A stretch of 64,000 bases of DNA from a virus. The notes under the pieces were generated by a model. The model did no database searches and was not told the origin of the DNA. It worked only from the letters and a program-made list of their open reading frames with translations. Positions 10,739-33,125 of this stretch are shown piece after piece. The DNA lies in IMG/VR virus record IMGVR_UViG_3300021197_001931, positions 1 to 64,000 of that record. One strand, 5' to 3'. How positions within the stretch are numbered: position 1 is the stretch's first letter; each line of letters starts with the position of its first letter. The position numbers and the translations under genes are program-made.

Positions 10739-12007
10739 ATGGATAATAATAAGTTAACCGTGATGGTTTTGTCAGACCATCCACTTTCCCCTTCAGGGGT
10801 AGGAACTCAAACAAGATATTTCATTGAAGCGATGCTTAAGACTGGTAAGTATCGCTTTATTTGTTTAGGTGGTGCAGTAAAGCACCAAAACTATACCCCA
10901 ATACAGGTTAATCCTTACCCGAATGATTGGGTAATATACCCTGTAGACGGATACGGAACCCAGGACATGATTCGTGGAATGATGATAAAGCACAAGCCTG
11001 ATATCTTGTGGTTTATGACTGACCCTCGTTTTTACGGATGGTTGTGGGAAATCGAGAATGAGGTAAGAGATGTTGTACCAATGGTGTACTATCATGTATG
11101 GGACAATTATCCATATCCATCATTTAATAATTCATGGTACAGGTCTAATGACGCGGTAGCAACAATTTCTAAAGTTACAAGTGACATAGTTAAAACTGTC
11201 TGCCCAGAAGTGGAGGAAACTTATATTCCACACATGATTAATACAAACATATTTAAGAAACAAGACGAGAACGCAGTTCTTAAATTTAAACAAGAGGCAC
11301 TAAAAGCAAGCGATACCTCTGACAAACTTTTGTTTTTTTGGAATAATCGAAACGCACGTAGAAAAATGTCTGGCTCTTTAATTTTTTGGTTTAAAGAATA
11401 TTTGGACCAAGTTGGGCACGATAAGGCGTTTTTGCTGATGCACACGGATCCTGTGGACCCTCACGGACAAGACTTGGTCGCAATTTTATCTGAGTTGGGC
11501 TTAAATCAGGGCCAAGTGTTGCTATCTAGGGAAAAAATTCCACCAGAGCAATTAGCTATGATTTACAATATGGCTGATTGCACTGTTAATATTTCAGATG
11601 CAGAGGGCTTTGGATTGGCAACATTTGAATCTTTAGCTTGTGAGACCCCTATTGTAGTAAATATGACCGGAGGACTACAAGAACAGGTCACTGATGGAGA
11701 AAGGTGGTTTGGTATAGGAATTGAACCTTCATCAAAGGCAGTTATTGGGTCTCAAGACGTTCCCTTTATTTACGAAGACCGTGTTTCAAAAGAGGACTTT
11801 GTACAAGCGTTAATTAAAATAACAAATATGACAAAAGAAGAGCGTGCCACTCTTGGCAGGCAGGGTAGAGAGCACATACTGAAAAATTACAGTATGGAGC
11901 AGTTCGCAAAAAGATGGGATGAAACTCTAACAAGAGTGCATGCTCGCTGTGGGTCTTGGGAAACAAGGAAAAATTATAATTCTTGGGAGTTTATGGAAGT
12001 AAAATGA
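10739..12007 (+). CDS. Glycosyltransferase, GT4 family
   Basis: SGVGTQ, NRNARRK, EGFGLATFESLAC (EX7E). Confidence 0.9.
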   Translation: MDNNKLTVMVLSDHPLSPSGVGTQTRYFIEAMLKTGKYRFICLGGAVKHQNYTPIQVNPYPNDWVIYPVDGYGTQDMIRGMMIKHKPDILWFMTDPRFYGWLWEIENEVRDVVPMVYYHVWDNYPYPSFNNSWYRSNDAVATISKVTSDIVKTVCPEVEETYIPHMINTNIFKKQDENAVLKFKQEALKASDTSDKLLFFWNNRNARRKMSGSLIFWFKEYLDQVGHDKAFLLMHTDPVDPHGQDLVAILSELGLNQGQVLLSREKIPPEQLAMIYNMADCTVNISDAEGFGLATFESLACETPIVVNMTGGLQEQVTDGERWFGIGIEPSSKAVIGSQDVPFIYEDRVSKEDFVQALIKITNMTKEERATLGRQGREHILKNYSMEQFAKRWDETLTRVHARCGSWETRKNYNSWEFMEVK

Positions 12008-13281
12008 AGAAAAAAATCATAGTAGTCGGTCCCGCTCTGTCGCAAACGGGATACGGAGAACAATGTAGATTTGCACTTAGGGCGCTGATGTCTAATCAGG
12101 AAGATTTTGATGTTTATCTGAAGCCCGTTCCTTGGGGAAAGAGTAGCTGGATACCTTTTGATAGCGAAGATCGCAACTGGATTGACATGTTAATTAGGAA
12201 AACTATGTTGTATGGTCAAAGTAACGGCCACTTTGATGCCAGCCTTCAAGTAACAATACCCAACGAGTGGGAAAAGGTAGCACCTATAAATATAGGTTAT
12301 ACCGCTGGGATAGAAACAACAAAGGTAAGTCCAGAGTGGATAGAAAAATCTAGATTAATGGATAGAATTATTACTATCTCTAATCATTCTAAAAATGTGT
12401 ATCTAGAAACATCTTATGACGCCAGAATGAGCGACTCAGATCAAGTATTTAAAGTTAGATGCGAAACTCCGATCGATGTTGTCCATTATGGAGTTAGAAA
12501 TCACAAACAAGAAGATATTAAAATTGATCTAGATTATGACTTTAACTTTTTAGTGGTAGCACAATGGGGACCTAGAAAGAATCTAGAAAATACTGTTAGA
12601 TGGTGGATTGAGGAATTTAAGGACGAAGAAGTTGGACTCGTAGTTAAGACCAGCTTATATAAAACTAGTATTATTGATAGAGAGCACACACTAGAAAGAA
12701 TGAAAAAGGTCATAGCAGATTATAAGGACACAAAGTGCAAAGTTTACCTTATCCATGGAAACATGACTGCTGAAGAATTAACAGGCCTCTATAGGCACCC
12801 AGATATAAAGTGCATGACCAGCCTCACGCATGGCGAGGGTTTTGGATTGCCATTATTTGAGGCAGCATACAACGAGTTGCCTGTAATAGCACCAGATTGG
12901 AGTGGCCATAAGGACTTTTTGTACGCACCCAAAAAACACAAAAAGAAGGGTAAAACGGTTACAAAAATAAAAGCTCACTTCGGAAAAGTTGAGTATGATA
13001 TAAAGCCAATTCAAAAGCAGGTTGTCTGGAAAGGTGTTCTACAGGAGGACTCAAGTTGGTGTTACGCAAAGAAAGAAAGCTACAAGTCTAGGCTTCGTGA
13101 TGTTTATTCAAATTACAATAGGTATAAAAATCAATCTAAATCTTTGAAAAAATCACTGATTAATAATTTTAATGAGCAAGACAAGTACAATGAGTTTTCT
13201 CATTCTGTTAAAACCGCCTGTGGATTATTGATTGATGATGAAGTGGATTCTATGTTTGAGTTTGCGATGCAGCAAAAATGA
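12004..13281 (+). CDS. Glycosyltransferase, GT4 family
   Basis: TGYGE, PRKN, HGEGFGLPLFEAA. Confidence 0.9.
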   Translation: MKKKIIVVGPALSQTGYGEQCRFALRALMSNQEDFDVYLKPVPWGKSSWIPFDSEDRNWIDMLIRKTMLYGQSNGHFDASLQVTIPNEWEKVAPINIGYTAGIETTKVSPEWIEKSRLMDRIITISNHSKNVYLETSYDARMSDSDQVFKVRCETPIDVVHYGVRNHKQEDIKIDLDYDFNFLVVAQWGPRKNLENTVRWWIEEFKDEEVGLVVKTSLYKTSIIDREHTLERMKKVIADYKDTKCKVYLIHGNMTAEELTGLYRHPDIKCMTSLTHGEGFGLPLFEAAYNELPVIAPDWSGHKDFLYAPKKHKKKGKTVTKIKAHFGKVEYDIKPIQKQVVWKGVLQEDSSWCYAKKESYKSRLRDVYSNYNRYKNQSKSLKKSLINNFNEQDKYNEFSHSVKTACGLLIDDEVDSMFEFAMQQK

Positions 13282-14876
13282 TAGTTTTTGTGGCAGATGC
13301 ATTTGTTGAACATTTTAATGGGGGCGCAGAACTTACTACTGAAAGTATAATCTCTTCGTGCTTACTGCCAAACGTAAAGGTGTTGTCTCAACAAATTACA
13401 GTTGAGTTGTTAAAGCAAAATAAAAATCATTTTTTTGTATTTGGAAATTTTCAAAATTTAAAATTTGATTGTATTCTATATGCTATTAAAAATTTGAATT
13501 ACTCAGTGCTTGAGTACGATTATAAATATTGTAGTTTTAGATCACCTGGTAAGCATGCGGCTGCCGATGGAATCTGTGATTGCCACCAGACAAAAAGGGG
13601 AAAACTAATATCTTTATTTTTAAATTCTGCTAACAAGTTATGGTGGATGTCTAAAAATCAAAAAAATCAATATATTGAAAAATTCCCCTTTTTAGGGGGC
13701 AACGTATTAAGCTCTGTTTTCTCAGACGAGACCTTAGATTTTATCCAATCTTTAGATATTTCCAAGAAACAAGAAAAGTGGGTTATTTTAGATTCAAAAT
13801 CTTGGATAAAAGGCGTTGAAGATGCAGTTAATTATGCTAAAGAGAACGATCTAGAATATGAGCTTGTTTGGGGGATTAGTCACAAAGAGTTGCTTAGAAA
13901 GTTAGCCCGCTCAAGGGGACTTATCTTCTTTCCAAAAGCTGGGGACACATGCCCAAGGATGGTTATAGAGGCAAAATTATTGAATTGTGATTTAATTTTA
14001 AACGAGAATGTTCAACATGTGGGCGAATCATGGTTTGAAACTAGAGATTCTTGTTTTAACTATCTTAGGGAGAGGACTTCTTCTTTTTGGAATTCTCTAG
14101 AGGAGGAAATAGGCTGTCTCCCCTCAAGCGAGTTCCAGTCTGACCAAAAATATATTTTTATAATTCCCTTCTTTAATGCGGCACCATTTTTGACAAAGTG
14201 CATAACAAGCATAAAGAGACAGAGGCATACAAAATTTAAATGTATTTTAATTGATGACATGTCAACTGATAATTCTAATGAAATTATTGATGATCTGATC
14301 TCAGGTGACCCCAGGTTTATTTTGAAAAGAAATGCACAAAAAGGATATGCCTTAAAAAATATTTATCACTCCCTGTTGGATGAAGAAATAGATGATGAGG
14401 ACGTCGTTATACTTTTAGATGGGGATGACTGGTTATCGTCAAGCAAAACTTTAAATGCTTTGAACGAGGCGTACAACGAAGACTGCTTGGTCACCTATGG
14501 TAGCTATATTATGCACCCTCACGGAATCCTTGGCCCCGAGCCATCCAGGTACCCGAAAGAGGTTGTAGACAACAATCTTTATAGACAAGATAAATGGAGA
14601 GCTTCGCATTTGAGAACATTCAAATATCATGTTTGGAATAGAATTGATGTTGATGACCTAAAAGATAAAGATGGTAATTTCTACAGCGTTTCTTACGACC
14701 AAGCTATAATGCTTCCGTTGCTTGAGATGGCTTCTGATAGGGTAAAATATGTTAATTCTGTTTTACATGTGTATAATAAAGAGAACCCTCTCAATGTTGA
14801 CAAAATAAAGCAAAAGCTACAATATGACACCGCCCAAGAGATAAGAAAAAAGAAAAAATATGAGAGAATAAAATAA
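13278..14876 (+). CDS. Bifunctional glycosyltransferase (GT-B-like N-terminus + GT2 C-terminus)
   Basis: GGAELT...DTCPRMVIEAKL; then IIPFFNA, IDDMSTD, LDGDDW. Confidence 0.85.
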   Translation: MIVFVADAFVEHFNGGAELTTESIISSCLLPNVKVLSQQITVELLKQNKNHFFVFGNFQNLKFDCILYAIKNLNYSVLEYDYKYCSFRSPGKHAAADGICDCHQTKRGKLISLFLNSANKLWWMSKNQKNQYIEKFPFLGGNVLSSVFSDETLDFIQSLDISKKQEKWVILDSKSWIKGVEDAVNYAKENDLEYELVWGISHKELLRKLARSRGLIFFPKAGDTCPRMVIEAKLLNCDLILNENVQHVGESWFETRDSCFNYLRERTSSFWNSLEEEIGCLPSSEFQSDQKYIFIIPFFNAAPFLTKCITSIKRQRHTKFKCILIDDMSTDNSNEIIDDLISGDPRFILKRNAQKGYALKNIYHSLLDEEIDDEDVVILLDGDDWLSSSKTLNALNEAYNEDCLVTYGSYIMHPHGILGPEPSRYPKEVVDNNLYRQDKWRASHLRTFKYHVWNRIDVDDLKDKDGNFYSVSYDQAIMLPLLEMASDRVKYVNSVLHVYNKENPLNVDKIKQKLQYDTAQEIRKKKKYERIK

Positions 14877-14878
14877 AA

Positions 14879-15853
14879 ATGATTAGAAACAACAAACTTA
14901 TTAATATTCTAATGTGTTCTAGACCAGGAGGCGACCGTGGTCCTGGGCTAACTTATGGCCACCACGTAAAGGCTTTGAACGAAGATGAAAAAGGCAGGTT
15001 TTACGTCAATGAATTGTGGAAAATTTCTGATCAAAATGAAATTAACAATTATGATGTTTTTTGGTTTTATGCAAAGGGTTTTGACCCCAGAACGTATTTG
15101 TTTTTAAAAGAAAATTATCCACATAAAAAGTTTGTTTTTGGCCCAAACATCCTTCTAGATAAGCCGGATGTTGGAGCTGCTGATCCGTGGGATGAATGGT
15201 TCTTAGGCAATGTTGAGTTTGATTTATACATTGATCAGGTAGAGTATTATAACAATCATGTTAAGAAGTTTATAAGACCAGACCTTGTACACAAAGCAGA
15301 TTATCTTGATAAATGTGTGACATTTGATATAGATCCATCAATTATAGAAAACAAAACAATTAAATATGATTGCCTGGTGTACTCTAAAAAAAGAAGATAT
15401 GATGATAACTATGAACAGTTTCATGGTGGCCTTATTGGTCTTTTGAATGAAAATAATATATCTTTTGTAGAATTAACTTATGGAGATTATAAAAGACAAG
15501 AATATTTTGATGCCCTCTTGGAGTCAAGGTGCTGTATAAACTTGAGTCTTGATGAGTGCCCCGGCATAGCAACTTATGAATCTATGTTCATGAATACTCC
15601 AATTATTGGCTCTCCGCACAATACTCCAAGCATTTTTGACACTAATTTTTGGGTGCATGATACTGATAAAATGACTGATAAATATATCAAGAGGAAAGAA
15701 GACGCACATATAAAGTATTACGAAAAGATATCCTCTTTTCTCAGTGGAGAAATAGACCTTCGAATTAGCCCAAGGGAATATATATTAAAACACGCTGGGT
15801 ACAAAAGATATGTTAACGATGCACACAAATTAATGATAAAATACTGTCTCTAG
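14879..15853 (+). CDS. Putative GT-B glycosyltransferase
   Basis: RGPG N-terminal loop; ECPGIATYESM (EX7E-like). Confidence 0.65.
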   Translation: MIRNNKLINILMCSRPGGDRGPGLTYGHHVKALNEDEKGRFYVNELWKISDQNEINNYDVFWFYAKGFDPRTYLFLKENYPHKKFVFGPNILLDKPDVGAADPWDEWFLGNVEFDLYIDQVEYYNNHVKKFIRPDLVHKADYLDKCVTFDIDPSIIENKTIKYDCLVYSKKRRYDDNYEQFHGGLIGLLNENNISFVELTYGDYKRQEYFDALLESRCCINLSLDECPGIATYESMFMNTPIIGSPHNTPSIFDTNFWVHDTDKMTDKYIKRKEDAHIKYYEKISSFLSGEIDLRISPREYILKHAGYKRYVNDAHKLMIKYCL

Positions 15854-15862: not shown

Positions 15863-16675
15863 ATGTTAGATAAAAAAACTTTTGAACAGAGAAAACAGGC
15901 CTTCGAAACTCTATTTCAAGAGAAAAAAAATGAGGGCAAATTTGATGATTGGGAGACTCAATTTTGGAATAGTCCCCATATTCGAGATAAGTCTTATGGT
16001 GTCTTATTTAATGAAAATATTAAAAGCCCTGTTAGGAACGCTGCAGCCTTGCTAATGATATCCATGATTGAAAAAATTTATCTTTTTGATTATGATGAAT
16101 ACTGCAAGATAAATGATGTTTTTGAAAAACTATTTTTGATGCCGTCAAATGTCCAACCTGAAAAGTACGAAATAATAAAAAAGTACCTAAATAAGGACAC
16201 TTTAATGTTTGAGTGGGGATCTGGGTATAGTACAATTCACTTTGCTAAAATTTGTAGATTTGTTTTTTCTGTTGAAAGCGATCCATTTTGGTTATCTAAG
16301 ATAAGTATGGTGTCCTCTATTCTCAACATTGACAATATTAGTATTGCAGGGTCTTTTATGCCACCCTATGGTCAGGGGCCCGAAAACACTACTTACCCCT
16401 CTGCAATAGAAGGCATATCACAAGCAACTGGCATTAAGTCTTTTGATGTTGTCTTAGTTGATGGAAGAATGAGGGAGAAGTGTTTAGAAAATGCCCTGCC
16501 TCTTTTACATGATGAATCGGTGGTTATCGTGGACGATTTTGATAGAGATTATCCAAAAGGCATCACCCAGAAGTATAGCAAAATTGTTAAAGATAATTAC
16601 GAAATAGTTGAAAGAACAGACTGCAGCACTGGCCTAGTTGTATTAAAAAAGATTGGAAATAAAAATGAGCTTTGA
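15863..16675 (+). CDS. Class I SAM-dependent methyltransferase
   Basis: FEWGSGYST, SVESD, FDVVLVDGRMR, VDD. Confidence 0.8.
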   Translation: MLDKKTFEQRKQAFETLFQEKKNEGKFDDWETQFWNSPHIRDKSYGVLFNENIKSPVRNAAALLMISMIEKIYLFDYDEYCKINDVFEKLFLMPSNVQPEKYEIIKKYLNKDTLMFEWGSGYSTIHFAKICRFVFSVESDPFWLSKISMVSSILNIDNISIAGSFMPPYGQGPENTTYPSAIEGISQATGIKSFDVVLVDGRMREKCLENALPLLHDESVVIVDDFDRDYPKGITQKYSKIVKDNYEIVERTDCSTGLVVLKKIGNKNEL

Positions 16676-17522
16676 ATTTAAGGTGCCAAATTACGAAGAA
16701 ATAATTTCACAACAAAAGTCATATGAATGGTATCATTTCTTGTGTGAATATTACGATGTAACTCCAGACCAAGCTTTGGAGCTTGGAACCAGAAAATTTG
16801 GTAGAAAGCCAACCCTTCCCGGTTCAAAAACCTGCGATCCGGTTTCTGATATGACTTTTGAGGATATTTGGGAACTTCAAGAAAGAGAGACCCCAGAACA
16901 GATATTCCAGTTCTACAAAGACCAAGGTGCTTGGAGTACGTTTAGGCAAACTGTTAGACACTTAGAGCTTGCTGGCATGCACAGATCCGTGTTAAAAATA
17001 ATGGCTTCTCCTGGCATACACCTTTGCGAATACGGGTGTGGCGTTGCTCCTTTTTCAACGACTCTTCTTTTAAACTGTGGCGAAGATTTCAATATTGATA
17101 TCTCTATTTCTGATGTTGTGGAATCAGAACACCTGTATTTTGCCGAGTGGAAATTGAAAAAGATTATTAAAGAAAGGGGACTTAAAAATGTCAACCTTTA
17201 TGTGAAACCTGTCACAGCAAACAGTCTCCCCGAATATCACAAGCCAATTGATAGGTTTATAATATTCGAAGTTTTGGAACATGTTCTTAGTCCTGTAGAA
17301 ACAATCACCAATGTAGTTAATCAGATGAACCCTGGGGCACTGTATTTAGAAAATTTTGTTAAACTCAATATGGAAGAAATGGATGACCCTGGCCCAGACC
17401 TAAAATCTGCAACTTCCGAAAGGGCAAAGTATTATAATCTAATTGAGAGCAACTTTAATCTTTTAACTTCAAACTCTGATGATATAGATCCTAACGGTAC
17501 TAGGATATGGCTTAAAGGGTAA
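16665..17522 (+). CDS. Class I SAM-dependent methyltransferase
   Basis: CEYGCGVA, FEVLEHV, MNPGALY. Confidence 0.8.
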   Translation: MSFEFKVPNYEEIISQQKSYEWYHFLCEYYDVTPDQALELGTRKFGRKPTLPGSKTCDPVSDMTFEDIWELQERETPEQIFQFYKDQGAWSTFRQTVRHLELAGMHRSVLKIMASPGIHLCEYGCGVAPFSTTLLLNCGEDFNIDISISDVVESEHLYFAEWKLKKIIKERGLKNVNLYVKPVTANSLPEYHKPIDRFIIFEVLEHVLSPVETITNVVNQMNPGALYLENFVKLNMEEMDDPGPDLKSATSERAKYYNLIESNFNLLTSNSDDIDPNGTRIWLKG

Positions 17523-17535: not shown

Positions 17536-18315
17536 ATGAGCAGTTACGATTGGACACATTATGCGTTTGGGGATGATTTAGTTAAAGATCGGTATCAACA
17601 ATTTTATGATAATTGGGAGGTATTAATTCAAAATGACCAAGAGTTAGCCCAGTTCTCGAAAGAGGTTGGAGAGATAAAGGACACCGTGGTTCCAGATAAT
17701 TATATGGAACTTTGGAATAAAATAAATTTACCAATTCAAGTACAGAAAGCCAATAATTATCGCCTCACCGAAGAGCATGCACTAAAATGCTTTGAGGGCT
17801 TACATAAAAGAGCTTTTTACTTAGTGAAGGTTGCAAAGTTTTTTAATGCGAAAAATATACTAGAGGTTGGCACTTCTCAAGGGTGGCAATATTTCTCATT
17901 TGCCGAGTATGCAAAAGGTGTCAAGGGCCACGTTTGGAGCTGTGATATAAGAGACGTTAGACATCAAGAATCAATCGAAAAATACGACAACAACACTACT
18001 TTTCATTATGGACGAAGTGAAACTTTGAAAGATATAGTTGGTGACAATAAGATAGATATGTTTTATATTGATGGCGCTCATGACAAGCTTTCTGTTTTAA
18101 GAGATGTTTATAATTTACAAGATGTGCAGGCAGATGAGTGTGTTTGGGTTTTTGATGATTTTGATCATCGATTTGGATGCTTTGATGACATAGAAAAACT
18201 TTGCACATATTACAATAGATGTAAAGTTTATAATGTTGGGGAGGCTGCGAGTGGAAACCCAAGCCACCAAGCAATAATATTTGGTAAAATTGATATAAGA
18301 ACAGATAATAGGTAG
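17536..18315 (+). CDS. Methyltransferase (Methyltransf_24-like)
   Basis: ILEVGTSQG, DMFYIDGAH, VFDD. Confidence 0.82.
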   Translation: MSSYDWTHYAFGDDLVKDRYQQFYDNWEVLIQNDQELAQFSKEVGEIKDTVVPDNYMELWNKINLPIQVQKANNYRLTEEHALKCFEGLHKRAFYLVKVAKFFNAKNILEVGTSQGWQYFSFAEYAKGVKGHVWSCDIRDVRHQESIEKYDNNTTFHYGRSETLKDIVGDNKIDMFYIDGAHDKLSVLRDVYNLQDVQADECVWVFDDFDHRFGCFDDIEKLCTYYNRCKVYNVGEAASGNPSHQAIIFGKIDIRTDNR

Positions 18316-18319
18316 CACA

Positions 18320-24680: not shown

Positions 24681-25283
24681 ATGGGAAGAAGTGATCCATA
24701 TTTAAAACAGTTTTGGGGGAGCCATATAAAGCCCAGTGGGGACGTTGCCTTATTAGGGTTTACCGACAATAATAAATTTTATGGTGACTTATATGATTTA
24801 CAACTAAAAAATTGGGATATTAATTCTGATTGGGTTTTGCCAAGAAAATATGATACTATCATATGTACACGATGTGCTTACTTTTCAAAAGATCTCAGCT
24901 CTTTTTTTAAAAAATGCCACGACTCCTTAAAAGAAGGAGGCTCTCTTTACGTTGATTTTGGACTAGGAGACCACTGGAGATTTCAAGATTATAAAATTGG
25001 TTGGATTAAAAACGGTGAACAGGAGCATGCGTATGAAGAGGGTAATTTTTTATGGTCAACTGTTTGGGATGATCAATTCTTGCTAAGCCCCCATTACCAG
25101 AGGTTTTCATCATATGTCGAGAGATATGGATATACAGACGTGAAGAAAGCAATTTTTGAAGAAGTCCCAGAAGTGCTGCACCTTACAAAGTTATCGAATC
25201 TTTTTAATATTCAATTTAGCTTGCTATCTTTATGGCCAGACAGCCCACAGTTATATGTTTTGATAAAGGCAACGAAGGTTTAA
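24681..25283 (+). CDS. Divergent SAM-dependent methyltransferase-like protein
   Basis: YDTIICTR...SLKEGGSLYVD. Confidence 0.55.
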   Translation: MGRSDPYLKQFWGSHIKPSGDVALLGFTDNNKFYGDLYDLQLKNWDINSDWVLPRKYDTIICTRCAYFSKDLSSFFKKCHDSLKEGGSLYVDFGLGDHWRFQDYKIGWIKNGEQEHAYEEGNFLWSTVWDDQFLLSPHYQRFSSYVERYGYTDVKKAIFEEVPEVLHLTKLSNLFNIQFSLLSLWPDSPQLYVLIKATKV

Positions 25284-25285
25284 TT

Positions 25286-26245
25286 GTGAATTTTATTCTA
25301 GTTGAGATGACGTTCTTACGATATTATATACCTCTTATTGCAGAGGGTAACAAAAGGGGTATAAAATCAAAAGTTTTTGTTGGCCCAAGTCATAAGTACA
25401 ATTGTCCACTAAGATTCAAGGGAGTGTTACTTGAACTTTCAAGGGAATATAATTTTGAAATTATAGAAGCCTCTAAAGCAAAAGAATATAATGGATATTT
25501 TTTCTTAATTGAGGCAACGGCCATAGATCTATTGAACCCCAATCAGAAAAAAGTTTCTTTATCTTATACAACAACTTTTTCTTATCATGCTCACACGTAC
25601 AGAGACAAAGTTGATTACATAGTATATCCTAGTGAGTTTATGGTTGATTTTTACAACCTAAAAAGAACAGAAAAGGATTTATGTCTTGGAGTTCCAAAAT
25701 ACGATATTGTCTTGAATAAGGAAGAAATAAATAAAAAGTATAACTTAACTGACAACAAAAAGGCCCTTTTTATAGCGCCAAAATTAAGAGATCTTAATAA
25801 AATAGATCTATCAAGAATATACAAAATTTTTAAAAATGAAGGATACGATATTTTAGTAAAAACAAGAGGAAAAGACCCAATTCCCAATAATCTTAGAGGG
25901 GATCGATATTTTACAGACAATAGTTGGCACCCACACACTTCAATGGAGCTAATGGAAGCCTCCAATATAGTGGTAAACTTTAGTTCCTCTGTTATTAAAG
26001 AAATAGTCATGCTTAGAAGACCAGTGGTAAACTTTGACATTAAGCCATTTAAGATGTGTTTGCCATTCTTGTATGATTATGAATATTGTCGTAATCTTAA
26101 AAAAGATGCAAACGAACAGCAGATAAAAAATGCAATTAAAGAGTTGACGACAAGACCGTTAGATGATATATTTGATTTATCAATAAAAAGTCATTTATTT
26201 AGTGGCAATTCATCAAAAAGAATTTTAGATCGACTAGGATTATAG
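25286..26245 (+). CDS. GT-B fold protein (CDP-glycerol glycerophosphotransferase / sialyltransferase-like)
   Basis: LGVPKYD, NFSSSVIKE, GNSSKRILD; immediately upstream of neuA-neuB. Confidence 0.55.
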   Translation: MNFILVEMTFLRYYIPLIAEGNKRGIKSKVFVGPSHKYNCPLRFKGVLLELSREYNFEIIEASKAKEYNGYFFLIEATAIDLLNPNQKKVSLSYTTTFSYHAHTYRDKVDYIVYPSEFMVDFYNLKRTEKDLCLGVPKYDIVLNKEEINKKYNLTDNKKALFIAPKLRDLNKIDLSRIYKIFKNEGYDILVKTRGKDPIPNNLRGDRYFTDNSWHPHTSMELMEASNIVVNFSSSVIKEIVMLRRPVVNFDIKPFKMCLPFLYDYEYCRNLKKDANEQQIKNAIKELTTRPLDDIFDLSIKSHLFSGNSSKRILDRLGL

Positions 26246-26808
26246 TGAAAATAGTTGCAATTATACCTGCTAGGGGCGGAAGCAAAAGATTAAAAAGAAA
26301 AAACATATACCCAATATGGGGAAAGCCAATGCTATATTGGTCAATTTTAGCTTGTAAGCAATCAAATTATGATATTGATGTTTGGGTTAGCACTGAAGAT
26401 ACAGAAATTGCAAATATTGCTAAACAATACGGAGCAAAAGTGGTGACTAGAGACGATTCTTTAGCTGATGATAAGACTTTTAAACAAGCAGTCATACGAG
26501 ATGCTGCTAGTAAAATTAATAACTTAGAGGGTAAAAAAGATATTTATATATCACTACAAGCAAATTCGCCAAACATACATTCTGAAAACATAGACGATGC
26601 TATCGATGTTCTCCTAAAACACAATAGAAAAGAAATTATTAGTGTTGATGAGAATTTAATGCAAAACGCAGCCTTCCGAGTTTTTAGAGGCGATTATGTT
26701 TTTCAAGAGGATTTGAGCACATGTTGTGGTGTTTTCGTTTGCCCACTAGAGGATGTTCATACCTTGGATGATGTAAAACAAATAGAGAAAAAAAGGAGAA
26801 GAACGTGA
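26245..26808 (+). CDS. neuA: CMP-nonulosonate (acylneuraminate) cytidylyltransferase
   Basis: IIPARGGSKRLKRKN, GKPM, VSTED, LQANSP, DVHTLDD. Confidence 0.88.
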   Translation: MKIVAIIPARGGSKRLKRKNIYPIWGKPMLYWSILACKQSNYDIDVWVSTEDTEIANIAKQYGAKVVTRDDSLADDKTFKQAVIRDAASKINNLEGKKDIYISLQANSPNIHSENIDDAIDVLLKHNRKEIISVDENLMQNAAFRVFRGDYVFQEDLSTCCGVFVCPLEDVHTLDDVKQIEKKRRRT

Positions 26809-27518
26809 CAGATATTTATATAATCAGCGAACTGTGTGGCCAATGGGGTGGATCTATCCGAAGAACGGAGCAGATGATACTACAATCAAAACTTGCTGGT
26901 GCCGATGCTGTAAAAGTTCAACTATACGACACATATCGAATGCCGGGAGAGAATCGTCAAATTTGGGAGTACCTCTCGATGACCAAGGAGCAGTTCCTAC
27001 ATCTTAAAGATTTTTCCGATTCTCTAAATATAGACTTTTTTGCATCTGCTTTTCATCCTGATAGGTTCCAGTGGATTTTGGACGCAGGATTGCAAACAAA
27101 TAAAATTGCAAGTATGCTGGTAAATCATGACCCTACCCTTTGCAGGGAAATGATTGACAGCGGCATGTTAACATACTGCTCTCTCGGACGCTGGGATGGA
27201 GAGGGTTACCCCTTTGAACAAGAGAATGTAAAATATTTTCACTGTGTATCAAAGTATCCACATACAATTGATGAGGCACTAGCATTAATGCCTGATAGAT
27301 TTGATGATCGTCTAGTCGGATACAGCGACCACACAGACAGCATTGAGGCTTGTGTTGAGGCTGTTAAACGAGGGGCAAAGATACTAGAAAAACATTTTAC
27401 AATAGACAAGGGCCTCCAGAGCAAGACCGAGGGGGCACACACTTGTTCTATGGTTATGGAAGAGTTAGCAGAGTTAAGAAATTTGTGTGATAAACACACG
27501 GGAGGAAATAATGGGTAA
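26805..27518 (+). CDS. neuB: Divergent, short nonulosonate synthase (NeuB family)
   Basis: GADAVKVQ, KIAS, HCVSKYP, GYSDHT, ILEKHFT; 237 aa, no C-terminal SAF domain. Confidence 0.85.
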   Translation: MTDIYIISELCGQWGGSIRRTEQMILQSKLAGADAVKVQLYDTYRMPGENRQIWEYLSMTKEQFLHLKDFSDSLNIDFFASAFHPDRFQWILDAGLQTNKIASMLVNHDPTLCREMIDSGMLTYCSLGRWDGEGYPFEQENVKYFHCVSKYPHTIDEALALMPDRFDDRLVGYSDHTDSIEACVEAVKRGAKILEKHFTIDKGLQSKTEGAHTCSMVMEELAELRNLCDKHTGGNNG

Positions 27519-28710
27519 TAAAGTTTTTGTACTAGGTGGAGATGGCTTTTGTGGTTGGCCCACATCCTTACACCTTTCTAATAATGGATATGATGTTGTT
27601 ATAGTTGACAATCTTTCTAGAAGAAATATTGATAATGAACTTTTTTGTCAATCGTTAACTCCAATAAGCAATATTGAAACTAGAATTAATGCGTGGAAAG
27701 AAATAACTGGTAAAACAATTTCTTTTTATAATATAAATATAGCAACAGAGTACGACAATTTTCTCTCACTTTTGAAGCATGAGCGTCCGGATACGTTGGT
27801 ACACTTTGCAGAACAACGTGCTGCTCCTTATTCTATGAAGTCTGCAAAGAATAAGAGATACACAGTCAATAACAACCTTAATTCAACTCACAATGTACTT
27901 TGCTCTATTGTCGAATCAGGATTGGATGTGGCCCTTGTTCACCTTGGTACCATGGGCGTATATGGTTATAGCTCTGTGGGTCTAACAATCCCGGAGGGGT
28001 ACTTGGATGTTAAGGTTGATGCACCAGACGGAGAAAAAGAATTAAACATTATGTATCCTGCTAATCCAGGTAGTGTTTATCACATGACAAAAACGCAAGA
28101 CGCACTGTTTTTTAATTATTATAATAAAAACGATAAATTGAGAATTACTGACCTACACCAAGGAATTGTTTGGGGCACGAATACAAACGAGACCATGCTT
28201 GATGAAAGGCTAATTAATAGATTCGACTACGATGGGGACTATGGCACCGTTCTAAACAGGTTCTTGGTTCAAGCCGCAGTTGGGCACCCCCTTACAGTGC
28301 ACGGCACAGGTGGGCAAACTAGGGCATTTATACACATCTCAGACACGGTTAGGTGTATTGAGCTTGCGATTAAAAATCCACCCAATAAAGAGGATAAAGT
28401 TAAGATCTTCAATCAAACCACCGAAACACATAGGATTATTGATTTAGCTCGTAGAGTCTCTAAGTTTACGGGAGCTGAAATCAAGTTTTACAAGAATCCT
28501 AGAAATGAAGCAGTTAGAAACGATTTGAAAGTTTGTAATGATAACTTCTTATCTCTAGGCCTTAACCCAACAACACTAGAAAACGGATTACTAAGAGAGG
28601 TTGAGGAGATCGCCTCTAAATATAAAGATAGGTGCGATTTGGATAAAATTGTGAGCACCTCAGCCTGGGACAAAAATAAGAAAATAGGATTGTTAGATAA
28701 TCAAGAGTAA
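27511..28710 (+). CDS. sqdB: UDP-sulfoquinovose synthase
   Basis: GGDGFCGWPT, HFAEQRAAPYSM, HLGTMGVYG, PGSVYHMTK, TDLHQGIVWG, RFDYDGDYGTVLNRF, GHPLTVHGTGGQTR. Confidence 0.93.
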   Translation: MGNKVFVLGGDGFCGWPTSLHLSNNGYDVVIVDNLSRRNIDNELFCQSLTPISNIETRINAWKEITGKTISFYNINIATEYDNFLSLLKHERPDTLVHFAEQRAAPYSMKSAKNKRYTVNNNLNSTHNVLCSIVESGLDVALVHLGTMGVYGYSSVGLTIPEGYLDVKVDAPDGEKELNIMYPANPGSVYHMTKTQDALFFNYYNKNDKLRITDLHQGIVWGTNTNETMLDERLINRFDYDGDYGTVLNRFLVQAAVGHPLTVHGTGGQTRAFIHISDTVRCIELAIKNPPNKEDKVKIFNQTTETHRIIDLARRVSKFTGAEIKFYKNPRNEAVRNDLKVCNDNFLSLGLNPTTLENGLLREVEEIASKYKDRCDLDKIVSTSAWDKNKKIGLLDNQE

Positions 28711-28722: not shown

Positions 28723-30027
28723 TTGTCAGTGCTAGGAAACAGCATATATGATTTTGTAAAGCAAATTTTTCCAATTTGTAGGAGTATAATGGGAGATGGC
28801 AACCGTCAGACCCTATCGTTAATACGGGAGCACATTCCTATTCAAATACATGAAGTCCCTACTGGATACACAGCGTATGATTGGGAGGTTCCAAAAGAAT
28901 GGAAGATAAAGGATGCTTATGTTTTAAGCCCTGGTGGTGAGAAAATAATAGACTTTAAGAAAAACAATCTTCACGTTGTAAATTATTCAATACCAGTTGA
29001 TATGGAAATTGATCTCTCTGAGTTACAAGAGCATTTGCATTCTACTGCAAAGTTACCAGACGCAATTCCCTACGTTACCTCGTATTATGATAGAAAATGG
29101 GGATTTTGCTTATCAGAAACACAAAGGAAAAGCCTAGTAGATGGAAAATATAAGGTTTATATTGATAGCGATCATGTAGACGGCTCCCTATCGTATGGAG
29201 AACTTATAATACCTGGTGAGACAGATGAGGAAATATTTTTAACATCTTATATATGTCACCCTTCTATGGCGAACAATGAGTGTTCTGGCCCTGCAGTCTT
29301 AACATTCTTGGCAAAATGGTTGATGAATAGAAATAACAAGTATACCTACAGGATTGTGTTCGCCCCAGAAACAATAGGAGCCATTATCTACATAAGCAAG
29401 AATTATGATGCTTTAACAAACAACGTTATTGCTGGTTTTAATTTAAGTTGTGTGGGAGACAATAGAGGATACTCTTTCATGCCATCCAGGCTTGGAAATA
29501 CCTTAGCAGATAAAACTGTTCAACATGTCTTAGAGAACTATGTTGAGTCATACACAAAGCATTCATTTTTATACAAGGGCTCAGATGAGAGGCAGTATTG
29601 TCATCCAAAAGTTGATCTTCCGCTGGTTTCGATCATGAGGTCAAAATACGGAACATTTCCAGAGTACCATACATCAAAAGATGATCTAAACTTTGTCAGC
29701 CCAGAGGGCCTAGCTGGTGGTTTTAGTATTGCGAAGAAATGCTTAGAAGCCTTAGAAATTAATGTTAAATACGAGAATTGTATAACTTGTGAACCAAAAA
29801 TGAGCAAGAGAGATCTACGTCCAAAAGATTGGCACAATAGACACTCTGGAGGAAAGGAAGATATGAGGAAGAATGTTAGAGATATGATGAACGTCATGTT
29901 TTATTGTGACGGGGATCACGATCTAATTGACTTATCCAATAAAATTGAAATACCGTTTCATAAGTGCCAAGAATATATTAAATTATTACGAAATAATGGT
30001 ATTATTAGGGAAATGGATGAAGAATAA
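28723..30027 (+). CDS. DUF4910/DUF2172 aminopeptidase-like (M28 fold) protein with C-terminal winged HTH
   Basis: PICRSIMG, DWEVPKEW, AIPYVTSYY, CHPSMANNECSGP, PETIG, GSDERQY, EYHTSKD. Confidence 0.85.
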   Translation: MSVLGNSIYDFVKQIFPICRSIMGDGNRQTLSLIREHIPIQIHEVPTGYTAYDWEVPKEWKIKDAYVLSPGGEKIIDFKKNNLHVVNYSIPVDMEIDLSELQEHLHSTAKLPDAIPYVTSYYDRKWGFCLSETQRKSLVDGKYKVYIDSDHVDGSLSYGELIIPGETDEEIFLTSYICHPSMANNECSGPAVLTFLAKWLMNRNNKYTYRIVFAPETIGAIIYISKNYDALTNNVIAGFNLSCVGDNRGYSFMPSRLGNTLADKTVQHVLENYVESYTKHSFLYKGSDERQYCHPKVDLPLVSIMRSKYGTFPEYHTSKDDLNFVSPEGLAGGFSIAKKCLEALEINVKYENCITCEPKMSKRDLRPKDWHNRHSGGKEDMRKNVRDMMNVMFYCDGDHDLIDLSNKIEIPFHKCQEYIKLLRNNGIIREMDEE

Positions 30028-30799
30028 AGTGAAGCTTATTACAATTATAAAAAATAGATTAGAACATTTTCTAAAAACGTTTCCATTTATGGTTTCCCAA
30101 TATGGAGTTGATTATGAGCTTTTTATAGTTGATTACCACTCCAATGACGGGCTACAAGAAGCTATAAAAGAACAAATAGGCTTTAGAAAAGACTCGTTTT
30201 CTCCTTATTTAAAAAAGATAGTTTCCATAAACCTACTAGAAGACTTGAAGTTTAGCACCAAAAAGTCAAAAAACTTAGGCGCCTCTTATTGTAGTAGAGA
30301 CGATGTCCTAGCGTTTACAGATGTAGACGTTCTTCTTAGTATGGATTATTTGCTGCACTGGTCGGCAAAAATTGAAAAAGGATCCACGTTTGTTACCACG
30401 AGACGCAAGGATACAGCGGCAAGTAATCCAAAAAGAATAAGACCAGAAATAAATTATGGGAATTTTATTGTTCATGCGGAAGATTATTTTAATATTTGCG
30501 GCATGGATGAAAGCAGACTACATTGGGGCGGAGCAGATGATGATATATTTCATAGATTAAAATTATATGGCCTCGATGAAATAAACCCCTATGGCGCATT
30601 TGATGCCAAACAATATTCTATATTACATGGAGATGAATTAAGGCTCTCCTCTTTAGAGGATACGAATCGATATAATAGTGACACAATATTTAAAGATATT
30701 TTTTCCAACAAAGACAGGCATAGATCCAAGGAAAGCAGTTTTTTAAATTTTGACTATTCAAGCAATAAATCAGAAAAAGTAATTTTGTATGAAAAATAA
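30017..30799 (+). CDS. GT-A fold glycosyltransferase (GT2/GT7-like)
   Basis: IVDYHSND, KNLG, FTDVD, GMDE...WGGADDD. Confidence 0.78.
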   Translation: MKNKVKLITIIKNRLEHFLKTFPFMVSQYGVDYELFIVDYHSNDGLQEAIKEQIGFRKDSFSPYLKKIVSINLLEDLKFSTKKSKNLGASYCSRDDVLAFTDVDVLLSMDYLLHWSAKIEKGSTFVTTRRKDTAASNPKRIRPEINYGNFIVHAEDYFNICGMDESRLHWGGADDDIFHRLKLYGLDEINPYGAFDAKQYSILHGDELRLSSLEDTNRYNSDTIFKDIFSNKDRHRSKESSFLNFDYSSNKSEKVILYEK

Positions 30800-31415
30800 A
30801 TCACCAGACGTGTCTGTAATTATAACAAATTATAACTATGGAAAATATGTAACTAGGGCAGTGCGCAGTTGCCTTGCGCAGAAACACATAAACGTTGAAG
30901 TAGTTGTTGTTGATGATTGTAGCGATGACAATTCATTAGAAACATTGTCCACTTTTAAAGATGATATAAATCTGATAGTTAATAAGAAAAATGTGGGCGT
31001 GGCTGAGTCGTCAAATGTAGGAATAAGGGCGGCAAAAGCTCAATTTGTAATAAGGGTAGACGCAGATGACTTTATAAATTCAGATACGTGCTACATTATG
31101 AAAAGATATTTAGTAGATAACCATGATGCCTTTTGTGTCTCATGTGATTATATTTTAGTTGATGATCATGAGAATTTAATTGAAAGAAAATATGCTGAAA
31201 AAGATAATATTTCTTGTGGTATCATGTATAGGAGAGATCTGCTCATTGAGTCTGGCGGATATAATTCTGATATGCGCCATAAAGAAGAAGAAGAACTGAG
31301 AAAAAGACTAGGAAGTTTTTACAAAATACACCACCTCAGAATGCCATTCTACAGATATAGAATGCACAATACTAACAAAACAAAACAACCGGAGTATAAA
31401 GAATGGAAAATATAG
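30789..31415 (+). CDS. Glycosyltransferase, GT2 family
   Basis: VSVIITNYN, VDDCSDD, RVDADD. Confidence 0.9.
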   Translation: MKNKSPDVSVIITNYNYGKYVTRAVRSCLAQKHINVEVVVVDDCSDDNSLETLSTFKDDINLIVNKKNVGVAESSNVGIRAAKAQFVIRVDADDFINSDTCYIMKRYLVDNHDAFCVSCDYILVDDHENLIERKYAEKDNISCGIMYRRDLLIESGGYNSDMRHKEEEELRKRLGSFYKIHHLRMPFYRYRMHNTNKTKQPEYKEWKI

Positions 31416-32257
31416 GTATCATCGGGAACGGCTTTGTTGGGTCTGCTATAGCCCATGGGTTCTCATTGCATGGAAATATTAGGATTTATGACCTAGACCC
31501 AATTAAGTCAACACACTCTATAGCAGAGGTTGTAAATGGCTCTAAGTTTATTTTTGTCTCTGTTCCTACGCCTATGAAAAACGTATTAGGCGGGGACATT
31601 GATACTTCCATTATGTACTCCGTCTTTGATGAAATATCAGAAATTAACGATAGAGACGATAATATTTTTATTGTCAAATCCACAATTGTTCCGGGTACCA
31701 TGGAAAAATTAATAGAAAGATATCCGCTATTAAATATAATTCATAGTCCTGAATTCTTAACTGAACGAAGCGCCAGACTTGATTTTATTAATGCGTCTAG
31801 AATTATTTTAGGCGGGGATCCACCCCTCTTAGACGAGGTGGAGGGTCTTCTAAGGGAAAGATTCCCATACATACAAGTAATTAAAACCGATGTAACAACA
31901 GCCCAATTTATAAAGTATATGGCAAATTGTTTCTTTGCAACAAAAGTTTCATTTATGAATGAAATGAAGCAAGCAGCAAACGTGCTAAACGTTGACTGGG
32001 ATGATGCGATGCGAGGCCTTATAACTGATGGAAGAATAGGCAATTCTCATCTAGATGTTCCAGGACATGACGGATATAACGGCTTTGGAGGCAAGTGCTT
32101 TCCTAAAGATTTAAATGCTTTTATCGGATTGTTTAAACAAGTGGGTGTTGATCCAAAAGTTATGACGTCTGTTTGGGACAAAAATTTAGAAGTTCGACAA
32201 GAGTACGATTGGAGAAGCATCGAGGGCGCCGTATCTAAAGGAGAAGAAAATGAGTAG
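31403..32257 (+). CDS. ugd: UDP-glucose/GDP-mannose 6-dehydrogenase (short form)
   Basis: GIIGNGFVG, VPTP, KST, PEFL, KYMAN, GFGGKCFPKD. Confidence 0.9.
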   Translation: MENIGIIGNGFVGSAIAHGFSLHGNIRIYDLDPIKSTHSIAEVVNGSKFIFVSVPTPMKNVLGGDIDTSIMYSVFDEISEINDRDDNIFIVKSTIVPGTMEKLIERYPLLNIIHSPEFLTERSARLDFINASRIILGGDPPLLDEVEGLLRERFPYIQVIKTDVTTAQFIKYMANCFFATKVSFMNEMKQAANVLNVDWDDAMRGLITDGRIGNSHLDVPGHDGYNGFGGKCFPKDLNAFIGLFKQVGVDPKVMTSVWDKNLEVRQEYDWRSIEGAVSKGEENE

Positions 32258-33125
32258 ATGTTTGGTTACGGGACACCGTGGATACATAGGCTCCAAAGTA
32301 TATGCAGCCTTGCAGGACAGAGGCCACGAAGTAATGGGCATAGACTTGCAGGATGGGCATGATATATTAATCCGCCTAAAACCAGATACTGATGGAAAAT
32401 TTCATCCGCACTGGGCGTCGTTTAAACCAGAATATATATTTCATTTTGCAGCTATTCCAAGAGTTGTATACAGCATCGAGCAACCAGTCCATGTAATAGA
32501 GAACAACCTATTAAGCAGCCTCTATATTCTAGAGTTTGCAAGACATGTTGGAGCCAAACGAGTTATTTATTCTAGCTCTTCATCCGTAAGAGGGAATGGA
32601 AACGGGCCTGAAAGCCCTTACGCTGCGTCAAAATATATGCCTGAAAGCATGTGCAATGTTTGGTCTTCTTTATACGGCATAGATACTGTGTGCCTTAGAT
32701 ACTTTAACGTATATTCGCCGTGTCAAAACGCATCAGGTCCGTATGCCACTGCAATAGCAAATTTTATGGAGTTTATACGCCAAGATAGGGATCCATACAT
32801 TACGGGAGACGGAGAGCAGACCCGAGATATGGCGCACCTTGAAGATGTTGTCTCTGCAAATATATTTTGTATGAATCACGAAGGACCATTTGGTGGATCT
32901 TTTTTTGATGTTGGTACGGGAGACAATATTTCACTAAACGATATTAAAAAAATTGTTCTAGAATATTTTCCGGATACTAATTTTAAATATGTTGAAGACC
33001 GCCCAGGCGACGTTATGCACACAAAGGCAAATATTCAACCCCTTCGTGATCTTGGATGGCGTCCAAGAAATCAGATAAACAGTGGAATAAGAAGCTGTTT
33101 TAAATCTTTAAAAGATAATTTATAA
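32250..33125 (+). CDS. NAD-dependent nucleotide-sugar epimerase/dehydratase
   Basis: VTGHRGYIG, SSSS, PYAASK, RYFNVY, GDGEQTRD. Confidence 0.9.
   Translation: MSRCLVTGHRGYIGSKVYAALQDRGHEVMGIDLQDGHDILIRLKPDTDGKFHPHWASFKPEYIFHFAAIPRVVYSIEQPVHVIENNLLSSLYILEFARHVGAKRVIYSSSSSVRGNGNGPESPYAASKYMPESMCNVWSSLYGIDTVCLRYFNVYSPCQNASGPYATAIANFMEFIRQDRDPYITGDGEQTRDMAHLEDVVSANIFCMNHEGPFGGSFFDVGTGDNISLNDIKKIVLEYFPDTNFKYVEDRPGDVMHTKANIQPLRDLGWRPRNQINSGIRSCFKSLKDNL

Follow-up and report, generated by a model that had tools for sequence, protein, structure and literature searches.

What would a marine T4-like phage do with a large set of soluble sugar enzymes and no machinery to export their product? The question is raised by a gene island at 10,739–33,125 of the first 64 kb of the IMG/VR virus record IMGVR_UViG_3300021197_001931. 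These 64 kb are the window analysed here; the record is linear, spans 161,719 bp and is 72% complete according to CheckV, so that genome-wide absences are provisional. The island consists of 26 co-directional open reading frames (ORFs) on the + strand over ~22 kb, with intergenic gaps of −101 to +13 nt and no opposite-strand ORF with gene support, which confirms the tight gene coupling noted in a preliminary description of the DNA. Pfam, NCBIfam, PDB sequence, fold and ESM-atlas searches identify nine glycosyltransferase (GT) genes with ten GT domains, seven genes being firm and two being leads, in line with the roughly nine genes of GT4, GT2, GT9 and GT-B-like type that had been counted before. 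These are g1 and g2 (GT4), g3 (a compact GT-B half plus GT2), g4, g8 (GT9), g15 (GT4-like), g18 (TagF-like), g23 and g24 (GT2), and all PF00534 and PF00535 matches of the whole record lie inside the island. Compared with its relatives the island reads as a fixed head joined to a swappable body, an organization that is new here. Virion proteins are the best-supported acceptor, a reading to which we give about an even chance.

In the proposed mechanism the head is g1 and g2, joined in a marine subclade by the compact GT-B domain of g3 (g3N), and the body (g3C to g26) would supply activated sugars, further transferases and tailoring enzymes. The sugars would be a GmhA-independent heptose- or octose-like nucleoside diphosphate (NDP)-sugar, cytidine monophosphate (CMP)-nonulosonate, uridine diphosphate (UDP)-sulfoquinovose and perhaps a uronic acid. 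Because all of the island enzymes are soluble, the glycan would be assembled in the cytoplasm one sugar at a time, and its acceptor would require neither a lipid carrier nor export. This acceptor would most likely be the phage's outward-facing virion proteins, possibly at Ser/Thr-Gly-Ser sites. The first sugars would be laid by g1 and g2 and a strain-specific outer glycan would be built by the cassette, the predicted benefit being shielding or a changed surface chemistry. Gene content, solubility, conservation of the anchors, turnover of the cassettes and motif excess are observations, and the acceptor, the step order, the sugar identities and the benefit are proposals. The left flank and the head comprise the following genes.

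9963–10733, + strand: left flank, PD-(D/E)XK exonuclease (PF12705, E 4e-17), directly upstream of the GT pair in all relatives
10739–12007, + strand: g1, anchor GT4 with EX7E motif (PF00534, E 1e-11)
11983–13281, + strand: g2, second anchor, GT4-like GT-B with EX7E motif (PF00534, E 1e-7)
13278–14876, + strand: g3, compact GT-B (g3N, residues 1 to ~290) fused to a cassette-type GT2 (~292–420; PF00535, E 3e-18)

The comparison set consists of nine IMG/VR viral contigs (L002–L009 and L014) and three cultured phages. The EX7E motif of GT4 enzymes is kept in both g1 and g2, as read off alignments. In the nine contigs g1 is 54–62% identical, g2 is 38–51% identical and the exonuclease is 50–57% identical, and the corresponding values for Flavobacterium phage immuto are 31% (gp181), 30% (gp180) and 28%. 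Rhodothermus phage RM378 features a g1 relative at 24% identity (p013), and the g2 family aligns with RM378 p014 at an hhalign probability of 92% over 368 columns. Immuto is the nearest cultured relative (33% identity in the gp6-like baseplate wedge), and its PD-(D/E)XK nuclease is followed by full-length g1 and g2 orthologues and then by ~12 other sugar genes. In Microcystis phage Mel-JY01 the same nuclease is followed by a pair that is split by one gene and then by a 6-kb cassette, and in RM378 the pair stands alone, with no cassette, before ribonucleotide reductase. The hosts of these cultured phages belong to three phyla (Bacteroidota, Cyanobacteria and the Rhodothermus lineage), and the persistence of the pair across all three is what would be expected if the acceptor were intrinsic to the phage, and not if it were a host-specific lipid-linked intermediate. 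Metagenomes contain at least 6759 clusters of the g2 family at 90% identity; many are of marine origin, and some are fused to a GT2. The locus is a hallmark of this very large clade of T4-like aquatic phages, to which immuto and RM378 are related. Searches by tblastn with g1 and g2 returned only immuto, Mel-JY01, RM378, one jumbo phage and three distant records, and no cyanomyophage or pelagimyophage. Distant g1-like GTs also occur elsewhere: those of siphovirus S-CBS4 accompany a methyltransferase within the head module, and those of TJE1 immediately precede the terminase.

Two observations concern the wider architecture of the pair. In many relatives the g2 orthologue carries a C-terminal GT2 (655–676 aa; L005 4455–6485, L007 11197–13206; P0009, P0010 and others); the GT2 is fused to g3N here and to g2 there, and the same parts are joined differently across the clade. 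RM378 has a UDP-galactopyranose mutase homologue far from its GT pair (L027 44414–45565; record 112985–114136) that may be a remote sugar-supply gene for the same system.

Among solved structures, the one closest to g1 in sequence is B736L from chlorovirus NY-2A (3oy2, E 2e-9). The model of g2, with a predicted local distance difference test score (pLDDT) of 89, also has B736L as its best fold match (E 2e-15), four orders of magnitude ahead of the next, and it is followed by GT4s with soluble acceptors, such as BshA, GlgM, SdgB and GtfA. Among the predicted structures of viruses, the closest matches belong to GTs from mimivirus-like giant viruses and from uncultured tailed phages. B736L binds GDP-mannose (PMC9614988), and the likeness of g1 and g2 to this protein is a resemblance and not a functional assignment. 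g3N is modelled as a GT-B fold (pLDDT 75) and matches stand-alone proteins of ~285 aa in L002, L003, L004, L008 and L014 at 26–28% identity. Its fold matches are generic compact GT-B enzymes that include TarM, SenB, the T4 DNA alpha-glucosyltransferase and, from the protein O-GTs, GtfC, Gtf3 and SdgB, and hhalign comparison of g4 and of immuto gp179 with the g3N family revealed no relation. Separately, g1, g2 and many database homologues of g2 have a near-threshold match to PF20706 ('Family 4 glycosyltransferase in conflict systems'), and a literature search for PF20706 or GT4-conflict found no mention of either.

Beyond the head the gene content changes from relative to relative, as the preliminary description had supposed. 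The nine contigs share PhoH, the nuclease, g1, g2 and usually a stand-alone g3N homologue; their flanks and g1 are 50–63% identical and their genes beyond g2 or g3N are non-homologous to the island. In L004 both flanks enclose a body of just ~9.5 kb. L014 features a g9–g14 module at 48–81% identity (g9 67%, g12 81%) directly after its g3N homologue, and it is without g3C–g8 and without any gene after g14. The 64 cassette ORFs of the relatives encode other chemistries, which include PseB-like, NeuB and NeuC-like enzymes, a DegT aminotransferase, PIG-L, a GT10 fucosyltransferase, ATP-grasp and UDP-glucose dehydrogenase (UGDH). A megablast search with the complete island found no counterpart in 50,697 phage records. 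The bodies are apparently swapped as modules via recombination, and in both size and chemical range the island exceeds the relatives described so far.

The record is a metagenomic assembly, and g21 is 70% identical to a gene from Bacillota, which raises the question of whether a bacterial polysaccharide locus was mis-joined to phage DNA. The composition of the island argues otherwise: five segments of it correlate with the genome mean in tetranucleotide usage at r 0.90–0.94 (other segments average 0.84), and a guanine-cytosine (GC) content of 0.355–0.375 matches the genome. At each junction the genes overlap through their start and stop codons, g3 joins a cassette-type GT2 to a domain conserved in the clade, and the same architecture is found in nine independent viral contigs and three cultured phages. 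The bacterial surroundings of the g21 homologue, in addition, are rich in multi-pass membrane proteins, unlike the island. On these grounds of composition, overlapping genes and a recurring architecture the chimera was rejected, and its probability is close to negligible. Outside the window, positions 90001–95000 and 155001–160000 of the record are strong compositional outliers (GC 0.49–0.50, tetranucleotide r 0.34–0.36 against ~0.9 elsewhere) with neighbouring segments partly affected, and no tRNA genes were found at 84001–103000.

Export parts were sought by a hydrophobicity criterion, a 19-residue window reaching 1.6 on the Kyte-Doolittle scale, and by profile search. No transmembrane (TM) segment is found in the 26 island proteins by this criterion, and no ORF of the 161,719-bp record has four or more TM-like segments, the maximum being three in proteins of 79 and 107 aa. 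The priming transferase family PF02397 (Bac_transf) is absent from the record in a search that was positive in 10 of 14 control genomes, and a WecA-type priming transferase is excluded because no ORF has at least four TM-like segments. Among the 64 cassette ORFs of the relatives there is no multi-pass membrane protein, and one TM-like segment occurs in just four ORFs at three loci. Since the IMG/VR record is incomplete, the complete immuto genome was scanned as well, and at least four hydrophobic segments are found there only in the holin, in a 381-aa protein beside the lysis genes and in the tape measure. No priming transferase, flippase, polymerase, ligase or ABC exporter was found in the island, the record or the cassettes of the relatives, and the statement in the preliminary description that Wzx, Wzy, an ABC transporter, a priming transferase and membrane proteins are missing from the cluster is thereby upheld. 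As an argument against the cell envelope this absence is not supported as stated, for soluble GTs alone are compatible with host lipid-linked acceptors.

The alternative that follows is remodelling of the host envelope, in which the cytoplasmic steps would extend a host undecaprenyl-linked unit that is then exported by the host's own priming transferase, flippase and ligase; the altered cell surface would block superinfection or stop progeny from adsorbing to debris. Lipopolysaccharide (LPS)-like islands of pelagimyophages and cyanomyophages, which include genes for rfaE and UDP-glucose dehydrogenase, have been read in this way in the literature (PMC7029224), as has a cluster of 22 genes in S-SCSM2R, P-SSM2 and S-SCSM1 (PMC12801897). 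The GT2, GT4, GT9 and TagF-like families are those of O-antigen, core and teichoic-acid synthesis, peripheral GTs require no TM segment, and the record is 72% complete. The export parts named above are nevertheless missing even from the cassettes of the relatives, the pair is common to phages of Bacteroidota, Cyanobacteria and Rhodothermus, whose envelope acceptors differ, and RM378 has the pair without a cassette. The lack of a tblastn match to g1 in cyanomyophage and pelagimyophage records means that the island is not homologous to the published ones. We regard envelope remodelling as a serious although unlikely explanation.

Evidence that points to the virion comes from the motif [ST]-G-S, whose observed counts were compared with those expected from composition; the motif was chosen post hoc, it was checked against one negative control and fibre proteins are repetitive. 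In this genome the motif occurs 71 times (34.8 expected), with the excess in the baseplate, sheath, adaptor and neighbouring structural proteins, and in the 24 island enzymes that were scored it occurs once, in g1. The structural half of immuto contains 76 copies (20.9 expected), of which the tail spike gp101 alone has 26 (5.9 expected), and the non-structural half contains 4 (4.8 expected). RM378 has 41 copies (17.3 expected), concentrated in one block, and the structural region of T4, the negative control, has 4 (11 expected).

Phage DNA is another acceptor that needs no export. In DNA hypermodification the GTs would put sugars on a modified base and protect the genome against restriction or CRISPR, as in the T4 alpha- and beta-GT and the MT/5mYOX-dependent clusters. 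Glycans of up to three sugars that include heptose, Kdo and hexuronic acid have been reconstituted from such clusters, one of which used a HAD/kinase enzyme, a cytidylyltransferase and a GT-B (Pyle et al., bioRxiv 10.1101/2023.12.21.572611). The GT pair always follows a nuclease and lies among replication genes, the T4 alpha-glucosyltransferase is among the top fold matches of g3N, and the sub-threshold PF20706 matches of g1 and g2 are to a family of conflict systems. A base-modifying enzyme is required, however, and the record (72% complete) is without a dCMP/dUMP hydroxymethylase (PF00303), a C5-methyltransferase (PF00145) or a Tet/JBP protein (PF12851, a search without a positive control). 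Digests of virion DNA from immuto, a phage in which both members of the pair have orthologues and a 12-gene cassette is present, show only dA, dC, dT and fdPreQ1 by liquid chromatography with ultraviolet detection and tandem mass spectrometry (PMC10516641). No known DNA glycan calls for as many as ten GT domains and four sugar pathways, and the motif excess on virion proteins would be left unexplained. DNA is a highly improbable acceptor on this balance. The isoelectric points of the island enzymes are uninformative on DNA binding. The record has no 7-deazaguanine genes (QueC, TGT/DpdA) of the kind that immuto has. The immuto protein gp224 (L030 26884–28155) is annotated as 'thymidylate synthase' and, at 423 aa, is long for ThyA.

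There are several points that weigh against virion proteins as the acceptor, in addition to the post hoc choice of the motif. The virion glycan of this clade is predicted from genes and is unproven. The island is located among early and DNA-metabolism genes, outside the structural module. The function and acceptor of B736L are not established (PMC9614988), and since the fold matches of g3N cover both T4 DNA alpha-glucosyltransferase and protein O-GTs, they do not discriminate between acceptors. The GTs that act on undecaprenyl-linked intermediates are likewise soluble or peripheral, and a host primer, flippase and ligase could serve; the 72% completeness of the record weakens the absence of export parts, and similar islands have been read as host O-chain modification (PMC7029224, PMC12801897). 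Phage DNA glycans can include heptose, Kdo and uronic acids (Pyle et al., bioRxiv 10.1101/2023.12.21.572611). Finally, the shortened enzymes g19, g20 and g25 may be inactive. The proposal of the virion as acceptor made in the preliminary description thus stands as the best-supported one, through indirect evidence from the conservation of the pair across phyla, the [ST]-G-S excess, the immuto DNA data and the positions of the distant g1-like GTs in S-CBS4 and TJE1, with the acceptor itself still unproven.

Virion glycosylation is established for mycobacteriophages, as far as a citing paper relates it (PMC12619734), and for giant viruses (PMC9614988). The mycobacteriophage work on phage GTs is that of Freeman et al. 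2023 (Cell Host Microbe), as it is cited in PMC12619734 and PMC13313380. In the account given by these citing papers the mycobacteriophage systems use soluble phage GTs and methyltransferases in the cytoplasm with no export machinery, features that the island shares at the level of its genes. Their glycans are reported on virion proteins, where they act as a shield, and the targets are C-terminal extensions of capsid and tail-tube proteins; one to few GT genes are located by the capsid and tail genes of small siphoviruses and use host nucleotide sugars. The island instead comprises 26 genes of a T4-like myovirus, which are predicted to encode sugar pathways of their own. The giant-virus clusters for the chlorovirus Vp54 N-glycans and the Megavirinae fibril glycans (PMC9614988) share with it their own nucleotide-sugar pathways, soluble GTs, methyltransferases and a clade-specific content, but these are eukaryotic viruses, and no homology to the island was found beyond the GT4 fold family, which includes B736L/A546L. 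By analogy the locus would work most like the giant-virus clusters, but in a bacteriophage. It is the genetic features of virus-autonomous glycosylation systems that the locus shares.

The LPS islands of marine myophages (P-SSM2, S-SCSM1, S-SCSM2R and pelagimyophages) are also large hypervariable sets of GT and sugar-nucleotide genes (rfaE-like, UGDH, KdsA/B, epimerases) in T4-like phages, with unproven function. The S-SCSM2R set has 22 LPS-type genes that include 13 GTs, similar sets are found in P-SSM2 and S-SCSM1, and the host-recognition clusters of pelagimyophages hold 63 of the 162 LPS-related proteins found (PMC7029224, PMC12801897). These islands, which have been interpreted as modifying the host O-chain, are scattered or map to the tail-fibre region, whereas the present island has a conserved GT pair at a fixed site after the PD-(D/E)XK nuclease, with no g1 or g2 match in the former. 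DNA-glycan clusters (T4 alpha/beta-GT; MT/5mYOX, Pyle et al. 2023/2024) share soluble GT-A and GT-B enzymes and sugar-activation genes that include those for heptose, Kdo and uronic acids, but they need a hydroxymethyl-pyrimidine writer, which was not found in the record, and make one to three sugars. Bacterial O-antigen and capsule loci likewise enclose, between conserved flanks, a modular and hypervariable set of GT, sugar-pathway and tailoring genes; the island differs from them in having no priming transferase, Wzx/Wzy, ABC transporter or ligase. By its gene content in the 72% complete record, the locus classes neither as an O-antigen or capsule locus nor as a DNA-glycan cluster.

The virion reading can be extended to a bolder form, which we put forward tentatively and at somewhat less than an even chance. 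In this form the phages of the GT4-pair clade would coat their own baseplate, sheath, neck and fibre proteins at Ser/Thr-Gly-Ser sites, and a recombining cassette would encode the outer glycan, in this case a GmhA-independent higher-carbon sugar, a nonulosonate and sulfoquinovose. This would be a phage counterpart of bacterial O-antigen diversity, with coat sugars none of which has been reported on a bacteriophage particle; a literature search found no link of sulfoquinovose or nonulosonic acids to phage virions. If the glycan is on the virion, abundant aquatic phages would have a self-made hypervariable sugar coat, which would bear on evasion of recognition, sticking to particles and mucus, survival in seawater and grazing, and the 'LPS genes' of marine phages would have to be seen as genes of the virion and no longer of host manipulation. 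The cultured relative immuto makes the question directly testable, since it has the orthologous pair and a 12-gene cassette.

The body that follows g3 and the gene on its right flank are listed below; curated cut-offs are given in bits.

14879–15853, + strand: g4, probable GT-B (lead only; ESM-atlas neighbours at 0.97–0.98 are viral GT1-type clusters)
15863–16675, + strand: g5, methyltransferase-like, weak (phmmer to 3cvo, methyltransferase-like, E 2e-4)
16653–17522, + strand: g6, class I methyltransferase, weak (PF13847, E 1.6e-4, under the gathering score)
17536–18315, + strand: g7, methyltransferase, firm (PF13578, E 4e-13, 50.6 bits, cut-off 26.3)
18320–19165, + strand: g8, GT9 of the heptosyltransferase family, 281 aa (PF01075, 28.6 bits, cut-off 22)
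19162–20040, + strand: g9, fusion of an RpiB-type isomerase and an HldE-domain-II-like nucleotidyltransferase (PF02502, E 8e-49; PF01467, E 8e-22; TIGR02199, 145.7 bits, below cut-off 181.5)
20012–20968, + strand: g10, PfkB kinase, HldE-domain-I-like (PF00294, E 9e-25; TIGR02198, 128 bits, below cut-off 345)
20952–21638, + strand: g11, class II aldolase fold, AraD-like ketose-phosphate 4-epimerase (NF006047, 283.8 bits, above cut-off 257)
21598–22038, + strand: g12, cupin, candidate phosphomannose isomerase (PMI)-like isomerase (PF00190, PF01050)
22043–22711, + strand: g13, FSA/TalC-type transaldolase or aldolase (PF00923, E 1e-44; TIGR00875, 169 bits, below cut-off 246)
22699–23028, + strand: g14, small HAD-IIIA phosphatase with a putative GmhB-like role (TIGR01689, capsule biosynthesis phosphatase, E 2e-9)
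23037–23951, + strand: g15, GT4-like (PF13692, 33.5 bits, and PF00534, 29.4 bits, each above cut-off)
23948–24667, + strand: g16, DUF2334/CE4-like deacetylase (PF10096, 46.7 bits, cut-off 26)
24681–25283, + strand: g17, methyltransferase, weak (PF08242, E 3e-3)
25232–26245, + strand: g18, TagF-like (Glyphos_transf) GT-B just upstream of the CMP-sugar genes (PF04464, 29.5 bits, cut-off 22.1)
26245–26808, + strand: g19, short CMP-sugar synthetase, PseF/KdsB-like, 187 aa (PF02348, E 6e-27; TIGR03584, 104 bits, below cut-off 206, model positions 1–133 of 222)
26805–27518, + strand: g20, short NeuB-family phosphoenolpyruvate-condensing synthase, 237 aa (PF03102, E 3e-28; TIGR03569, 97 bits, below cut-off 400)
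27487–28710, + strand: g21, UDP-sulfoquinovose synthase-like short-chain dehydrogenase/reductase (SDR) (NF041015, E 5e-97, full length, 325 bits, below cut-off 575)
28723–30027, + strand: g22, DUF4910/DUF2172/HTH_47 aminopeptidase-like (PF16254, E 1e-101)
29927–30799, + strand: g23, GT2/GT-A glycosyltransferase (PF02709, PF10111, PF00535)
30789–31415, + strand: g24, GT2 (PF00535, E 1e-26)
31403–32257, + strand: g25, nucleotide-sugar 6-dehydrogenase without the C-terminal UDP-binding domain (TIGR03026, 169 bits, below cut-off 190, model positions 64–299 of 413)
32250–33125, + strand: g26, NDP-sugar epimerase/dehydratase, generic SDR (PF01370, E 1e-42; GalE 99, heptose epimerase 93 and TviC 89 bits, all below cut-off)
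34110–34811, + strand: right flank, putative gp55-like late sigma factor, weak, conserved in relatives (phrog_234, E 6e-4; 61% identical in L004, 28% to immuto gp118)

Four methyltransferases had been described, of which g7 is firm and is the sole one above its curated cut-off, and g5, g6 and g17 are weak; the deacetylase is borne out by g16. g4 has no Pfam match and no useful PDB sequence match, and PDB sequence searches with g2, g8 and g18 gave nothing useful either. The sugar classes encoded are a heptose-like sugar without GmhA, CMP-nonulosonate, UDP-sulfoquinovose and the product of a truncated UDP-sugar dehydrogenase. The enzyme families of the four nucleotide-sugar classes named earlier are thus present, but the majority of the matches are at family level, under the equivalog cut-offs, and three enzymes (g19, g20 and g25) are shortened. 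A 'strongly anionic, methylated' glycan is plausible from the enzyme classes and is not supported in those terms; two of these enzymes are truncated.

g9–g14 form a six-gene sugar-activation module with the GT9 gene g8 immediately upstream, and they are treated as one module because they recur as a unit in L014. The module resembles the ADP-heptose pathway in having kinase, nucleotidyltransferase, HAD phosphatase and GT9 homologues adjacent to each other, although the HldE matches are below cut-off and the HAD match is weak. The pathway differs in that GmhA is absent here, with RpiB, AraD-like, cupin and FSA/TalC enzymes in its stead; no SIS domain is found in the 26 island proteins and PF13580 is absent from the record. 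In the simplest reading the aldolase or transaldolase would build or supply a seven- or eight-carbon ketose phosphate, which the epimerase and isomerase would turn into an aldose. Phosphorylation at the anomeric position and removal of the distal phosphate would follow, and final activation would give an NDP-sugar that is used by the GT9 enzyme g8. The product may be a seven- or eight-carbon sugar other than ADP-heptose.

g18–g20 would make and transfer a CMP-nonulosonate, and since the island has no amino-sugar enzymes, the substrate would be host-derived or neutral. g20 is a TIM barrel only, with the SAF domain absent; both g19 and g20 are far shorter than the curated models and are either minimal active forms or decaying genes. 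g21 would make UDP-sulfoquinovose provided that a sulfite donor is present. Over 392 residues it shares 70% identity with a Paraliobacillus sp. PM-2 gene (Bacillota; L017 7965–9188), which is set among multi-pass membrane proteins, unlike the island. g21 looks like a recent single-gene horizontal transfer, and no relative of it was found in the viral contigs scanned, nor one of g16 in the metagenome contigs scanned. g25 and g26 would point to a uronic acid or an epimer. The UDP-binding domain of g25 is truly missing because g26 starts 8 nt before the g25 stop codon; a full-length form of this type of dehydrogenase, of 383 aa, is found in the relative L003 (14199–15350). The island is a compact source of soluble candidate enzymes for rare activated sugars: it offers a UDP-sulfoquinovose synthase of phage origin, NeuB and CMP-synthetase in minimal form, and a route to a heptose- or octose-like sugar that does without GmhA.

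The sugar modules bear on a further explanation, in which the acceptor is another cytoplasmic molecule: a host protein or non-structural phage protein, a small molecule, a lipid such as a sulfoquinovosyl lipid made by g21 and a GT4, or none at all where part of the island is metabolic and reroutes carbon in the manner of talC. In its favour, sulfolipid synthesis is the usual destination of SQD1-type products, and talC is common among the metabolic genes of phages. Small-molecule GTs such as BshA, GlgM and tetrahydrobiopterin GT are among the solved folds nearest to g2, and g19, g20 and g25 are shortened. Nine GT genes and four tailoring methyltransferases, however, imply an oligosaccharide and not a single transfer, and the FSA/TalC gene is passed on as part of a six-gene module that also encodes a kinase, a phosphatase and a nucleotidyltransferase. 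High cassette turnover among close relatives is, moreover, typical of exposed surface structures. An acceptor of this kind is improbable.

The island is located between the exonuclease and the putative late sigma factor and baseplate genes. Its placement just upstream of these genes, as first described, agrees with a first baseplate-like gene ~2 kb away, and the sigma factor call is weak. Scans for sigma-70 promoters, terminators and the T4 late promoter (TATAAATA) showed no clear excess. Between PhoH and the exonuclease, a 257-aa protein at 8903–9676 is kept in all relatives at 35–46% identity and has a sub-threshold match to the ATLF zinc-metalloprotease-like domain (E 4e-4).

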